Notes: generated by a model not told the origin, from the letters alone. A stretch of 64,000 nt of DNA from an uncultured Chloroflexia bacterium (GCA_963724635.1 CAVRVI010000013.1:155937-219936), one strand, 5' to 3'. Shown: positions 395-64,000, counted from the stretch's first letter. Program-made: numbers and translations.

Positions 395-892
395 ATGGGA
401 CCCGACAACCCCTGGTCGCCCAACTGGCGCCCGGACCCGAGCGGTCGTCGGCTGGTCGCGATCCGAGCGGCTCGCCGCGGGGCGCTGCTGGCCGGGATCG
501 TCTACCTGCCGGTCGGCGCCTCGGTGCTCATGGTGAGCTCCCTGCCCGACAGCGTCGCCCTGCTCGCGCTCGCGACGGGTCTGCCCGGTGTCTCGCTGCT
601 TGGTGCCGGCCTCGCACCCTCCGCGCTCGGCGCGTGGATCGACGCGATCGTCACCGGCGTCGCGTTCGCCATCGGCGCGCCGGTGGCGGCCGTGACCTCG
701 GTCGTCATCGGGGCCTTCGTCCTGGGCGCGTTCGTGCCGGGGTCGGACCTGGCCGGGCCCATCCTGCGTGGTGGCGTGCTCGCGGCCATCAGCGTGGCGC
801 CGGCGGTCGCGGTCGGTGCCGCGATCTGGGTCCTGTTCGTGCGCCGGCTGGGTCGTCCTCCCTCTCCTGACGCGACGAGCGGCACGGGTTAG
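395..892 (+). CDS. hypothetical integral membrane protein
   Basis: ORF track, 165 aa. Several Ala/Val/Gly-rich hydrophobic segments and a plausible ATG start. No family recognised. Confidence 0.45.
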   Translation: MGPDNPWSPNWRPDPSGRRLVAIRAARRGALLAGIVYLPVGASVLMVSSLPDSVALLALATGLPGVSLLGAGLAPSALGAWIDAIVTGVAFAIGAPVAAVTSVVIGAFVLGAFVPGSDLAGPILRGGVLAAISVAPAVAVGAAIWVLFVRRLGRPPSPDATSGTG

Positions 893-1655
893 TCGAGGAC
901 CGTCACCTCGTCGCCGAGGCGGACACGGCCGGGTCGTTCCACATCGGCGAGCACCCCGAAGTCGGCGTGCTTGCGGTCGCGCAGGCCGCGATAGGCGATG
1001 AGCGTGCGCAGGGTGTCGAGGTCGCGCACGCCCGTGTCGGGATCCTGCGTCGTGATCGCGCAACGGGCGTCCGGCTTGGTCACCGCGAGCACCGCGTCAC
1101 CGATGGCGATGCGCCGGCCGATCCACTCGTCCTCTTCGTGGGCGGTCGCGCCCTCGAGCTCGATCAGCATCCGGAAGCGCCGGGCGTCGACGCCATCGAC
1201 ACCCGCCTGTCGCGAGAACTCCGCGAGCGACCCGTCCGTGACGAGGCTGGTCGGGTTGCCGTCCCGCGTCCCGCCGGGTCGGTCGCAGCGGATCAGCCGG
1301 ATCGGGCGCCCGGCGAAGGCAGAGAGCGCCGCCGCCCAGGGCCCTTCGACGAGGTGACCGACCGCCGGTCCGGCCATGGATGGGCGTCTCGACCGCCTCG
1401 CCGAGACGGACCTCGTCGTCGAGGACGACGCCATCCGGGCATGGTGAGCCGGAGTCGCGTGGCGCCGGGATCGATGTGCGCCGCGATCTGCACGAGCTCG
1501 CCGACGATCAGCCGATCCACGAGCCGGTTCGTGTCGTCGGTCAGGAAGAACCGGCGATCCTCGACCACGCCGATCTCGGTCAGGTCGATGACATCGGGGT
1601 GCTCGAGTCCGAGGCTGCGGACCGGCGCGATGGAGAAGCGGGCGGCACGCGGCAT
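889..1655 (-). pseudogene. MOSC domain-containing protein; the reading frame is broken twice as sequenced
   Basis: The N-terminal beta-barrel part (MPRAARFSIAPVRSLGLEHPDVIDLTEIGVVEDRRFFL...RLRLTMP) lies in ORF 1293..1655. The middle part (DGVVLDDEVRLGEAVETPIHGR) lies in a third frame. The MOSC core (FRMLIELEGATAHEEDEWIGRRIAIGDAVLAVTKPDARCAITTQDPDTG) lies at the tail of ORF 889..2178. The breaks are near 1437-1439 and about 1355-1385. Confidence 0.75.
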
Positions 1656-1774
1656 CCCCGGATGCTAGCGGACGACGACGTCGACGATCGAACCGACCGC
1701 CGGTTCGGTGCACCAGACGATTCGAGCGGCCGATGGACGGAGGCCGTTGGAGGTGGGATGTGGAGCCAGGGCAG

Positions 1775-61066: not shown

Positions 61067-61318
61067 GGGGTGCCCTCGTCGCGCCTATGGCCGAACCGGG
61101 GTAAGCGTTCGGGCCGGTGGGACCAGCGACCACACCGCACCCAACCGGACCCTTCGGCCGCGGTGCGCCACGGCACCGGTCGTGCACGCGGCGGCCGGCG
61201 GGCAGCGTCCGGTCGGCGGTCGAGGGCCCGGACCCCCGTACCATTGCCCGCCCCTCCGGTGCCAGCCATCCTCGCGATCAGGAACCGGGCCCCAGTCCCG
61301 GACCGGAGGCATCATCAC

Positions 61319-63124
61319 TTGGGTCTCACCCATCGCCGCCCCCAGACCTCGCGCGTCGCCGCTCTCGCCGTCCGGCGTGGGCTGCGCGCGGCTGGCGTCT
61401 GGTTGGCCCTCGTCGCGATGCTCCTCGTCGCGGTCACTCCGGTCGTCGCCGGCGAGGGTCCTACCGCGCTCTCCGGCGGCTCGATGTCGCCCGGCTCCGG
61501 GACGCCCGACTCGACGATCGACTTCAAGGTCGAGTACCGCAACCGCCAGGGGTCCGCGGCCGACTGGGTGCGCGTCCGGGTCGGCAGTGCGACGCACGCG
61601 ATGCACAAGACGAGCGGCGACAAATGGAAGCGCGGAGTCACCTACGGCTGGTCCGGCAAGCTGCCGGCCGGGACCCACAAGGTCACGTTCGAGGCGATGA
61701 GCCGCGACAAGTTCGACGCCAGCCTGGCCGGCGGCTCCATCACGATCACGGTCCCGCCGACGCCCACGCCGAAGCCCACACCGAAGCCCACACCGAAGCC
61801 GACGCCCAAGCCGACGGCAACGCCCGCGCCCACACCCAAGGCGACCCCGAAGCCGACGGCAACGCCTGAGCCCACGCCGAGGGCGACGCCCAAGCCGACG
61901 GCGACCCCGAAGGCAACGCCCGAACCGACCCCGAAGTCCACGCCGGCCCCGACACCCAAGTCCACGCCCAGGCCCAGCCCGAAGCCGACGCCAGCGTCCA
62001 CCGACCGACCGCAGGCGACCCCGACGTCTGGGGTCACGGTCGACCCACATGCAGGCCCGACCGAGCGCCCCCGAGCGACCGGAACGCCGACCGGTTCACC
62101 CTCGCCCACCGGCAGCAACGCAGGCCCGACCGGCTCGCCGGCGCCGACCGGCACCTCGACCAGCCCGACGGGTTCACCGAACCCGAGTGACGGGGCGATC
62201 GGCTACGTCGTCCCGGCTGCGATCACCGGCGCGAGCGGCGGCGACACCGGTGGTTCGAACGGTGCCGCCGGAGCCCCGAGCCCCGGCACCGACGGCCAGG
62301 GGCCGGACGACGGACCGAACGCGGTCGGCTCGACCGGCTCCAACGGCCCGGACGGCACGGGCGGCGGCAATGGAGGCGGCGAAGGTGGTGGCGTCGATCC
62401 CGGCGCCGTCTTCGCGAGCGCGGTGGCCGTTCTCGGAAGCCCCGGCCCGACCATCCCGCTGGGCCTGGCGGCGACCATGGTGACCACGACCGGCGCCGTG
62501 ACGATGGCGATGGCGTTCGGCATGTTCGGGAAGCGCCGTCGGGATGGGGACCAGCCGGCGTCGGACGATGCCCTGGCCCAGGCCGCGGCCAGCGGGGTGG
62601 GCGTGGGGGTCTCGGCCCTGGCGGCCGCGCCCCTTGGCGTCGTGGTCCCGGCCGCCGTGCCCGGGCCCATGGATCTCGAGATGGCGATGCCGCGCTGGCG
62701 CCGGCCGTCGCTGATGGAGGCCCGCAAGGCCGACCCGATCCGGAACGCCGCACCCGCGGCCCCGCGCCTCACCTTCGATCACGGTCTCGTCGGTCCACTC
62801 GACGGGCGTGAGCGCCGGCTCATCCGCTACAACGTCGTCCGCCTGCTCGATCAGCCCGATGAACTCCGCGCCGGCGAGATCGGCTTCCTCGACCAGGGCG
62901 ACGAGGTCCAGTTGCTCGAGAAGTACGGCGTCTACTGGCTCGTCCTGTGCCCCGACGGCAGCCAGGGCTGGATCCACAAGATGACCCTGGGCGAGGTCGT
63001 CGGCGAGCCCGTCCCATCGGCGCCGACCGCCACGATGCCGATCGCGGCCGATACCTGGACGATGGGTGACGACGTCGACGGCGACGTGCTGGCCGCCTAC
63101 CTCGAGAGTCGCCGGCGCGCCTGA
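61319..63124 (+). CDS. single-pass envelope protein: signal/anchor, Ig-like ectodomain, PT(K)-repeat and Gly-rich linkers, TM helix, cytoplasmic SH3-like domain
   Basis: TTG at 61319 lies 9 nt after GGAGG, in the frame of ORF 60494..63124. ...[19 protein letters not shown] is followed by ...[23 protein letters not shown]..., then about 80 aa of PTPKPTPK-type repeats. A TM helix ([27 protein letters not shown]) follows, and the C-terminus reads ...[36 protein letters not shown]. Confidence 0.6.
61754..61995 (+). repeat. imperfect tandem 12-nt-unit repeats encoding the Pro-Thr-Pro-Lys linker
   Basis: ccgacgcccacgccgaagcccacaccgaagcccacaccgaagccgacgcccaagccgacggca... The units degenerate gradually. 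This is coding low-complexity sequence, not a CRISPR array. Confidence 0.7.
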
Positions 63125-64000
63125 CCACCCGCCGGTTCGCGGCGCAGCACCAGGATGTGCTGATGGGCGATGTTCGGGCACGAACACCCGCGGATAGCCG
63201 TAGGGGCGCAGCCGCGTCCCCGCCTGATGCCAGATCAGGTCACCCTTGGGGACGAACCCGACGGCCGCGGCGCGCGCCGCAAGGTCGGAGCCGACGAACT
63301 GGTAGCGCCCGTCCTGGTAGGCGTCGCGGACGATGACGACCGCGTAGCGACCGACCCGCAGGACGCGATACAGCTCGACGAAGACCGCCTCCATCCGATC
63401 GAGGAACGTGGCGTAGTCGGGGGCATTGGCGAGATCGGCCGGGGAGTCGCTGACCATCGCGTAGTCGGTCCGCCGGTTGGCGTGGGTCTCGGCCAGCACG
63501 CCGCCCGCCATGGTGCGCGCCAGCTGGATGTTGTACGGCGGATCGGTCGCGATGAAGTCGATGGCGCCGTCGGCCAGTGTCGGCAGGATGGCCAGGGCGT
63601 CACCCAGGCGGAGGTCCAGGCCCGAAGGGTCGAACGGACGCGGCCCGCCGGGGTCGGCCGTGCCCAGGTCCGCGATCCGAGGCCCCGTGCCGTCGTGCTC
63701 GGCGAGCAGCCCGGCGACCACCTCATGGTGGATCGCGACCCAGCGCGGATCCAGCTCGATGCCGATGGCGCGCCGCGGTCCACGCGCGATGGCCGCCCCC
63801 AGCAGTGTGCCGCCGACGCCGGCGAACGGGTCCAGGACGAGGTCGCCGGTCTTGCTGAAGAACTCGATCAGGCGGGCCATGAGTCGCGGCGGCTTGTTGG
63901 CGCCGTGGGCCTTGCGGGCCACATGTCCCAGCTCCGACGGGTACGCCGTGGTCAGCACGGACTTCGTGAAATACAGCCATTCCTCGCCCGGCAGGTCGTT
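63097..64000 (-). pseudogene. DNA methyltransferase (N6-A/N4-C type, DPPY motif). It is 5'-truncated by the window end and has one frame break near the 3' end.
   Basis: Minus-strand reading enters at 64000: NDLPGEEWLYFTKSVL...HGANKPPRLMARLIEFFSKTGDLVLDPFAGVGGTLLGAAIA (motif I)...IDFIATDPPYNI (motif IV)...RVFVP. A shift at GGG 63176-63178 then leads into [17 protein letters not shown]..., ending at TAG 63097-63099. Confidence 0.75.

Follow-up and report, generated by a model that had tools for sequence, protein, structure and literature searches.

At the consensus level, Nanopore assemblies are commonly said to err towards deletions in homopolymers, and errors linked to methylated motifs are usually substitutions, not insertions. 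Regarding metagenomes, the authors of the MFD-LR catalogue (Nanopore-only, Flye assembly, one Medaka round) point out errors associated with Nanopore in MAGs of low coverage (PMC12313526), and for soil assemblies frameshift errors are reported more for Nanopore than for HiFi (PMC13087279). The window considered here, i.e. the whole stretch of 64,000 nucleotides that was analysed, comes from a contiguous but low-quality MAG of an uncultured soil member of the Limnocylindrales (Chloroflexota), with an estimated completeness of 60.7% and 2.9 Mb in 21 contigs. Its reading frames are repeatedly interrupted by an extra base and, as judged from the sequence comparisons below, these extra bases are very probably consensus errors of the assembly and not part of the organism's DNA.

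Reading-frame breaks in the window

Parsing of the window for coding frames with a frameshift-aware codon-model parser called 35 events, and the breaks were aligned to the one to nine same-genus genomes available at each site. Of the insertions private to this genome, 21 are of one base and one (50008-50009) is of two bases; a further +1 break lies in paiB, and each mapped extra base is without counterpart in any of the genomes aligning at that site. About 10 of the "deletion" calls (among them 10991, 11353, 12144, 12686, 13768, 33370, and 46326) turned out to be ordinary gene boundaries with GTGA/ATGA overlaps, which leaves 55563 as the only candidate deletion and hence a tally of about 23 extra-base against 0-1 missing-base events. 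Three insertion calls (23492, 46585, and 62188) coincide with a stop codon each and probably mark boundaries as well. Two other calls, at 52200 and 61870, fall in variable or low-complexity sequence.

On the minus strand, the MOSC-domain gene has private one-base insertions at 1362 (absent from G007, G015b, and G010) and at 1437..1440, where either C1440 or one base of the run is surplus (CCGGG-AAGG in relatives, CCGGGCATGG here). Three more on this strand, compared with G015 only, lie in an ABC permease gene (an A at 30376, and 30533) and an ABC ATPase gene (31184). On the plus strand, an aldehyde dehydrogenase gene is hit at 33377, directly 3' of its start codon, where three relatives read ATGA-CGAC. 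In the sox region, nine relatives could be aligned at every plus-strand insertion, namely 44366..44370 in soxA (GTC-GG(G/C)ATGG in relatives), 44439 in soxA (an A outside any run; AAGCC-GCGG in relatives), 45559..45562 in soxB (among the six relatives listed, GT-CCC in five and GT-GCC in G010), 46191 in soxB (a C between GGGGG and A), and 46428 in soxD (an A before TCGATC). The Fe-alcohol dehydrogenase gene (plus strand) holds three, of which 47334 is an A before TCGG (GGC-(T/A)CG in nine relatives) and the exact base is uncertain within the spans 46769..46785 (nine relatives aligned) and 47647..47666 (eight). A luciferase-like monooxygenase gene on the minus strand carries the two-base insertion (CA, 50008..50009) together with a one-base insertion at 50134, each with seven relatives aligned.

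The plus-strand paiB break (50875..50885, near the 5' end) was placed by Pfam, without an aligned relative: the FMN_bind_2 match begins at profile position 18 of 168, and the N-terminus (VYVPAHFTPTEEDV) is therefore in another, previous frame. The ATP-dependent DNA ligase gene (plus strand) has private one-base insertions at 54919 and at 55342..55345, the latter being A55342 or one T (GG-(C/G)TTC in relatives), with three relatives aligned at both. The candidate one-base deletion at 55563 (plus strand), near the 5' end of a small gene, comes from an alignment with two relatives and is weak evidence. Further private one-base insertions lie in the rhodanese gene (56821..56823, minus strand, three relatives aligned), in the class-V aminotransferase gene (plus strand) at 57175..57182 and at 57343..57353, with ambiguous placement within the second span, and in an N6/N4 DNA methyltransferase gene (63175..63178, minus strand; GTT-GGGCAC or GTT-CGGGAC in three relatives).

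The proteins themselves appear whole once the breaks are read through. Single full-length Pfam matches span the breaks (DAO 1-353/353, Aminotran_5 3-335/371), all three DNA-ligase domains are matched in the ligase, and codon usage as well as protein conservation are undisturbed on either side of every break. The initial annotation, made from the sequence alone, had reported such breaks as nearly all +1, which the frameshift-aware parse and the same-genus alignments bear out; its tally of 29 extra to 5 missing bases overstated the number of events, whereas the insertion bias it described is in fact even more one-sided. All nine sites that it listed are real breaks (the second in the MOSC-domain and ligase genes, the first in soxA and soxB, both in the aminotransferase gene, and those in paiB, the rhodanese gene, and the methyltransferase gene), but the triplet to which it assigned the surplus base is at several of them conserved in relatives, with the extra base adjoining. 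Thus, GGG 57188-57190 is present in relatives, G015 included, and the extra base is near 57180, while at 1437-1439, 44366-44368, and 45560-45562 the relatives have GGG or GGC directly before A where this genome has GGGCA.

Genome-wide load and sibling genomes

Over the 2.9 Mb of the genome, the same parser returned 1,451 insertion-type vs. 409 deletion-type calls, with all contigs affected; in calibration it recovered 66% of simulated insertions and made 0.16 calls per kb on G010. Essential single-copy genes are not spared, since rpoB is broken over three frames (3 calls) and rpoC lies in about eight pieces (about 14 calls, 12 of them insertions). The calls are patchy, with a variance/mean ratio of 3.5 per 5-kb bin and 155 empty bins vs. 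49 expected. Besides, near-identical stretches within the assembly disagree with each other, one pair by 47 indels, many of them of one base, vs. 148 mismatches in 5.6 kb, and a second by 5 indels vs. 6 mismatches in 1.6 kb. Private indels were also looked for in the 23S rRNA gene of this genome and none was found; as only about 1.4 were expected and the distribution is patchy, this null is uninformative, not contrary.

The load follows assembly quality and not lineage. Counted over 30.5 kb of the window, the private insertions of one base amount to 0.43 per kb in this genome, 0.97 in G007, and 0.88 in G015, all low-completeness MAGs, vs. 0.04 in G010, a 95%-complete sibling nearly free of them, and private one-base deletions to 0.07-0.17 per kb in these four genomes. 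At the 5.2-kb sox locus, compared over 10 genomes, four MAGs have 18, 6, 6, and 4 private one-base insertions, at different sites in every MAG, and three others have none; unlike the insertion-laden MAGs, G011 is deletion-biased there. Private insertions occur even in the 23S rRNA gene of siblings (two in G001, one in G003). The comparison with sister genomes that the initial annotation had proposed finds the insertions absent from all aligned relatives. The genome with the best protein hit (L024 = G031, 97% identity) has a DNA identity of only 83-84% and is no nearer than G015.

Three siblings (G001, G005, and G017) match MAG contigs of the MFD-LR catalogue, and the genome at hand is probably a Nanopore-only long-read assembly too, a platform that we infer from the siblings alone. 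Noisy long reads were most probably its only input, and thin or mixed read support, i.e. low coverage or the collapsed reads of co-occurring strains, would have led the consensus to write one base too many, each surplus base putting a gene that is otherwise intact out of frame. To the one-sidedness of the bias, two strain alleles written side by side at variable sites may contribute. Counting against the artefact reading, the errors here are insertions without a link to homopolymers, unlike the deletions expected of Nanopore.

Sequence context and the source of the insertions

One artefactual origin of the bias, possible although doubtful, is that reads of at least two co-occurring strains were collapsed and both alleles written adjacently at variable sites. 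It fits the patchiness of the events and the presence in the bin of duplicate stretches that are 96-97% identical, which indicate that close variants are present. It also agrees with the nature of the inserted base: among 71 private insertions (this genome and its error-laden siblings pooled, three assemblies), 66% have a base that matches neither neighbour, vs. 49% expected. At many sites, moreover, the doubled pair corresponds to the two alternative bases that relatives show at one position, e.g. GG(G/C) at 44367, CC(A/G) at 44439, GT(G/C) at 45559, (A/T)CG at 47334, GT(C/G) at 54919, and GC(G/C) at 50134; such matches are weak evidence, however, because third positions are saturated among relatives that are 75-84% identical. 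Nor is the codon slot of the private insertions significantly biased towards the third position, the counts after codon positions 3, 2, and 1 (17/13/8 and 23/19/14) making a trend only (p = 0.08-0.34).

Less probable, and on the whole unlikely, is that most breaks stem from short G/C homopolymers being over-called systematically, or from errors linked to methylation of a motif, CGGGCA for example. The initial annotation had placed the breaks preferentially in G/C runs and in CGGG/CCCG, but counting shows these to be no commoner than chance: CGGG/CCCG is found at 5-7 of the 23 window sites vs. 2.9-4.6 expected (p = 0.15), G/C runs of at least three at 7 vs. 4.2-7, and runs of at least two at 8 vs. 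8.4, and at the genome-wide calls GGG/CCC stands at 0.99x and CGGG/CCCG at 1.14x background. As run extension is at chance level and the surplus base stands between two different bases in about 60% of mapped cases (for instance A in AAGCC[A]GCGG, A in GGC[A]TCGG, and C in GGGGG[C]ACC), homopolymer over-calling does not fit, and the pooled excess of bases unlike both neighbours speaks against it too. The hexamer CGGGCA/TGCCCG, which had been noticed at four breaks, is another matter, as it does occur at 4 of 23 window sites vs. 0.4 expected (p = 0.0005) and is 2.9-fold enriched in the genome outside the window (p = 3e-10). Measured against simulated random insertions, five hexamers are in excess (GATCGA 3.1x, CGGGCA 3.0x, TCGTCG 2.8x, TCGGGC 2.7x, and CCGCAG 2.3x), and a DNA methyltransferase gene lies within the window, all of which would suit a methylated motif. 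Against this, each hot hexamer makes up only 2.5-5% of events, all together are a minority, and the mild enrichment is spread over many CG-containing words and not over one motif at a fixed offset.

The assembly-error explanation put forward in the initial annotation was right in kind, as no aligned relative has the extra bases, they interrupt rpoB and rpoC, the calls come in patches over the whole genome, and siblings have their counterparts at other sites, but its specific form, G/C homopolymer over-calling at CGGG/CCCG, is not supported.

Biological readings

That the extra bases are real, a massive recent pseudogenisation by insertion-biased mutation in the organism or the sampled population, would account for their standing in the deposited sequence and is nonetheless very improbable: single-copy rpoB and rpoC would carry 3 and about 14 breaks, codon usage and protein conservation are undisturbed to both sides of each break, deletions are not in excess, the private set differs from one sibling MAG to the next with the high-quality sibling almost without any, and the assembly's own duplicate stretches disagree by one-base indels. 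That the cell itself decodes the breaks, whether through programmed +1 frameshifting of the ribosome or through quadruplet (four-base) codons, would explain why almost all of them are +1 in otherwise intact proteins, but it has next to no likelihood and is excluded by the lack of any codon-phase, coding-strand, or preceding-codon preference, since all three codon slots are used, CGGGCA is on the coding strand 29 times and on the other 32 times, the codons before the breaks are as frequent as in ordinary codon usage (GTC 10%, GCG 9.5%, GCC 9.4%), none of the breaks is conserved in aligned relatives, and the insertions of sibling MAGs extend into the 23S rRNA gene.

A quadruplet CGGN or a single shifty codon was considered as well and ruled out by the codon-usage-like preceding codons and by an in-frame CGG at most three codons away in 20% of events vs. 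14% of controls. The slippage-prone context that the initial annotation had offered as its second option is likewise rejected, because relatives show no conservation of the sites, and no run reaches a length that would slip. The breaks are very probably not a biological feature, neither gene decay nor unusual decoding.

Significance

As assembly errors, the breaks matter only as a data-quality warning. Some 1,200-1,800 spurious one-base insertions would distort the gene calls, pseudogene counts, completeness, and metabolic reconstructions of this genome, and a like distortion would affect several representatives of sibling species in the genus. The profile, i.e. almost only insertions, mostly non-homopolymer, and patchy, is useful to builders of polishing or frameshift-repair tools. 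Beyond this warning, the mild insertion hot words (CGGGCA/TGCCCG, GATCGA, TCGGGC, TCGTCG, and CCGCAG) could conceivably, if improbably, be putative footprints of DNA modification in the Limnocylindrales lineage, with the N6/N4 methyltransferase at the end of the window as one possible candidate source. Modified bases disturb the Nanopore signal, and the error map would therefore, if this were true, indirectly report part of the methylome.

Comparison with known systems

Among the systems with which the breaks can be compared, pseudogene-rich, decaying genomes such as that of Mycobacterium leprae share the high density of disrupted genes; unlike such decay, the present one breaks essential genes with lesions that relatives do not share, and these are of a single kind (one-base insertion) in a sequence otherwise without drift. 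As in programmed +1 frameshifting, known from prfB and from the frequent +1 sites of Euplotes, one surplus base interrupts an otherwise intact frame, but a conserved shift site, a defined codon, a fixed phase, and a strand preference are all lacking here, the sites are missing from relatives, and even rpoC has about a dozen. Regarding methylation-motif-linked errors of Nanopore basecalling, the likeness is the 2-3-fold over-representation of CGGGCA, GATCGA, TCGGGC, TCGTCG, and CCGCAG at breaks, and the difference is that this enrichment is weak, spread over many CG-containing words, and concerns a minority of events. The textbook Nanopore error, a miscalled homopolymer length and often a deletion, differs from the profile of this genome, which consists almost exclusively of insertions without a tie to homopolymers. 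In other respects the breaks resemble the gene-fragmenting indel errors described in Nanopore assemblies and MAGs (MFD-LR, PMC12313526; soil, PMC13087279; the Kastor tool, PMC12007338): there as here, indels of one base are confined to a single assembly and put conserved as well as essential genes out of frame, the completeness estimate is depressed despite long contigs, and soil samples and low coverage make matters worse.

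Inventory of the frame breaks

The window, C13:155937-219936, lies in a genome of 2.92 Mb in 21 contigs (70% G+C) whose estimated completeness is only 60.7%, and the nearest relatives of the window proteins are MAGs labelled Limnocylindrales or Limnocylindria (Chloroflexota). Breaks were detected with a codon model trained on this genome and a parser permitting one-base frame changes within genes, which yielded 35 events for the window, among them every site of the initial annotation except that in paiB. When the window was aligned at each event with the homologous stretch from up to nine same-genus genomes, 21 events appeared as one-base insertions found in this genome alone, and a further private insertion, of two bases, was found at 50008-50009. 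The Pfam match of paiB covers the 168-position profile only from position 18 onwards, and the absent N-terminal part is encoded in the previous frame, hence one more +1 break near the 5' end (50875-50885, + strand). About ten "deletions" called by the parser were dismissed as normal gene junctions where stop and start codons overlap (GTGA, ATGA), and three insertion calls that coincide with stop codons were set aside, leaving 55563 as the sole, weak, candidate deletion. Many breaks nearly all due to an extra base had been claimed, and parser and same-genus alignments bear this out, with about 23 extra-base against 0-1 missing-base events. In read-through translations, single Pfam matches run full-length across the breaks for DAO (1-353 of 353), SoxD and Fe-ADH, as well as for the three DNA-ligase domains, Aminotran_5, rhodanese and the luciferase-like monooxygenase.

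Two stretches of the window call for a separate mention. The gene at 61402-63106 (+) contains a long low-complexity repeat rich in proline, threonine and lysine (PTPKPTPK...), inside which no reliance can be placed on the parser calls made at 61870 and at 62188. At 10019-15024 (+), a tightly overlapping gene run encodes, as read from the translations only, phenylacetate-CoA oxygenase-like subunits, a 3-hydroxyacyl-CoA dehydrogenase and a thiolase; alignment to relatives revealed no private indel there, though the run is flanked by error-dense patches.

Genome-wide load and patchiness

Once junction-like calls were removed, the whole genome totalled 1,451 insertion-type against 409 deletion-type calls, with every contig affected. 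As a control for parser bias, random bases were inserted in event-free stretches of the genome and the parser was re-run, upon which it found 66% of them, placed 2 nt off at the median; allowing for this sensitivity and for the baseline of 0.16 calls per kb obtained on G010, a 95%-complete sibling, the true number would be roughly 1,200-1,800. Essential genes are not spared, the single-copy rpoB being spread over three frames and rpoC, with 12 insertion calls, broken into about eight pieces. The calls are also markedly clustered, with a variance/mean ratio of 3.5 per 5-kb bin, 155 bins being empty (49 expected) and 44 holding at least eight calls (2.3 expected).

Comparison with same-genus genomes

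The comparison with sister genomes, which the initial annotation had proposed, confirmed that the extra bases are absent from relatives. When 30.5 kb of the window was scanned in 360-nt pieces against three siblings, private one-base insertions amounted to 0.43 per kb in this genome, 0.97 in G007, 0.88 in G015 and 0.04 in G010, while private one-base deletions in all four stayed at a background of 0.07-0.17 per kb. Ten genomes were also aligned over the sox locus (L010), where private one-base insertions numbered 18 in G015, six in this genome, six in G001 and four in G007, with no site in common, and were nil in G005, G012 and G009. G011 exhibits the opposite bias to the other error-laden siblings at this locus, with five private one-base deletions vs. 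one insertion, so it is the assembly, not the lineage, that sets which way the bias goes. As judged from these alignments, the insertion load follows assembly quality, not lineage. In the 23S rRNA gene, private one-base insertions occur in siblings G001 and G003; none occurs in this genome, which is uninformative as only about 1.4 were expected. Of note, the counterpart of window positions 3.5-18 kb occurs twice in G015, on contigs C5 and C7, as diverged copies with 78-82% identity to the window, so that two related populations may be mixed in this bin.

Sequence context of the breaks

The breaks had been attributed to short G/C runs, especially in CGGG/CCCG, and this part of the initial annotation did not hold. 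Of the 23 window sites, 5-7 are touched by CGGG/CCCG, vs. 2.9-4.6 expected (p about 0.15), and seven by runs of at least three G/C, vs. 4.2-7 expected; within 6 nt of the 1,430 calls of insertion type made in the rest of the genome, GGG/CCC occurs at 0.99 times and CGGG/CCCG at 1.14 times the coding background. In alignments to relatives, many insertions are plainly non-homopolymer, e.g. AAGCC[A]GCGG, GGC[A]TCGG, GAC[A]TCGATC, GGGGG[C]ACC or GCGG[C]GCC, and at several of the proposed triplets the run is conserved and the extra base adjoins it; the break placed at GGG 57188-57190 lies near 57180. Of 71 insertions pooled from three error-laden assemblies, 47 (66%) introduced a base unlike either neighbour, where 49% would be expected if insertion were random (p = 0.003), and the composition of inserted bases is roughly that of the genome.

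The enrichment of CGGGCA/TGCCCG stood, with four of 23 window sites vs. 0.4 expected (p = 0.0005) and 2.9-fold enrichment in the genome outside the window (p = 3e-10). Relative to the simulated insertions, several hexamers stand out (GATCGA 3.1-fold, CGGGCA 3.0-fold, TCGTCG 2.8-fold, TCGGGC 2.7-fold, CCGCAG 2.3-fold) besides many CG-containing 4-mers at 1.3- to 1.5-fold, each hot hexamer accounting for only 2.5-5% of events. Since it survives this control and is spread over many words, the context bias is real yet diffuse.

None of this relates to translation. The strand that bears CGGGCA is the coding one at 29 breaks and the other one at 32, private insertions occur in each of the three codon slots (17/13/8 in one count, 23/19/14 in another), the codons preceding the breaks mirror codon usage, and an in-frame CGG occurs near only 20% of events vs. 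14% of controls.

Origin of the breaks

The assembly also disagrees with itself. Two near-identical pairs of stretches, of 5.6 and 1.6 kb, differ by 47 indels vs. 148 mismatches and by five vs. six, respectively, ratios that fit consensus noise rather than divergence. Three pairs at contig ends, 96-97% identical (C14:60991-66626 with C15:1-5604, C6:274563-278033 with C16:33018-36479, and C16:1509-3884 with C17:107362-109733), bear 12-47 mostly one-base indels each, and suggest that the bin contains strain variants that were not collapsed, or contig ends that overlap. Separately, at C16:13828-18170, outside the window, a unit of about 364 bp is repeated in tandem about 12 times, the copies being 99.4-99.6% identical and their differences partly one-base indels.

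The 96-97% identical duplicates are among the points in favour of strain collapse, whereby two strain alleles written side by side would yield insertions; besides, many doubled pairs match two alternative bases at one position among relatives, and inserted bases tend to differ from their neighbours. The excess at third codon positions that it predicts is however a trend only, and strain collapse is rather doubtful as a major contributor.

The frame breaks are not a biological feature. Genome-wide load, damage to essential genes, dependence on quality rather than lineage, patchiness, internal disagreement and the lack of a link to translation all point to an artefact, and the breaks are most probably consensus errors in a metagenome assembly of noisy long reads, of a sort that low or heterogeneous coverage could generate. 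The initial annotation was thus right as to the kind of cause, an assembly error, but not as to its mechanism, G/C-run over-calling. From the same-genus siblings, we infer that the platform was Nanopore. The Microflora Danica long-read MAG catalogue was built from Nanopore data only, with Flye assembly and one round of Medaka polishing, and its authors report Nanopore-associated errors in low-coverage MAGs (PMC12313526); such errors are likewise documented in Nanopore soil assemblies (PMC13087279, PMC12313526, PMC12007338).
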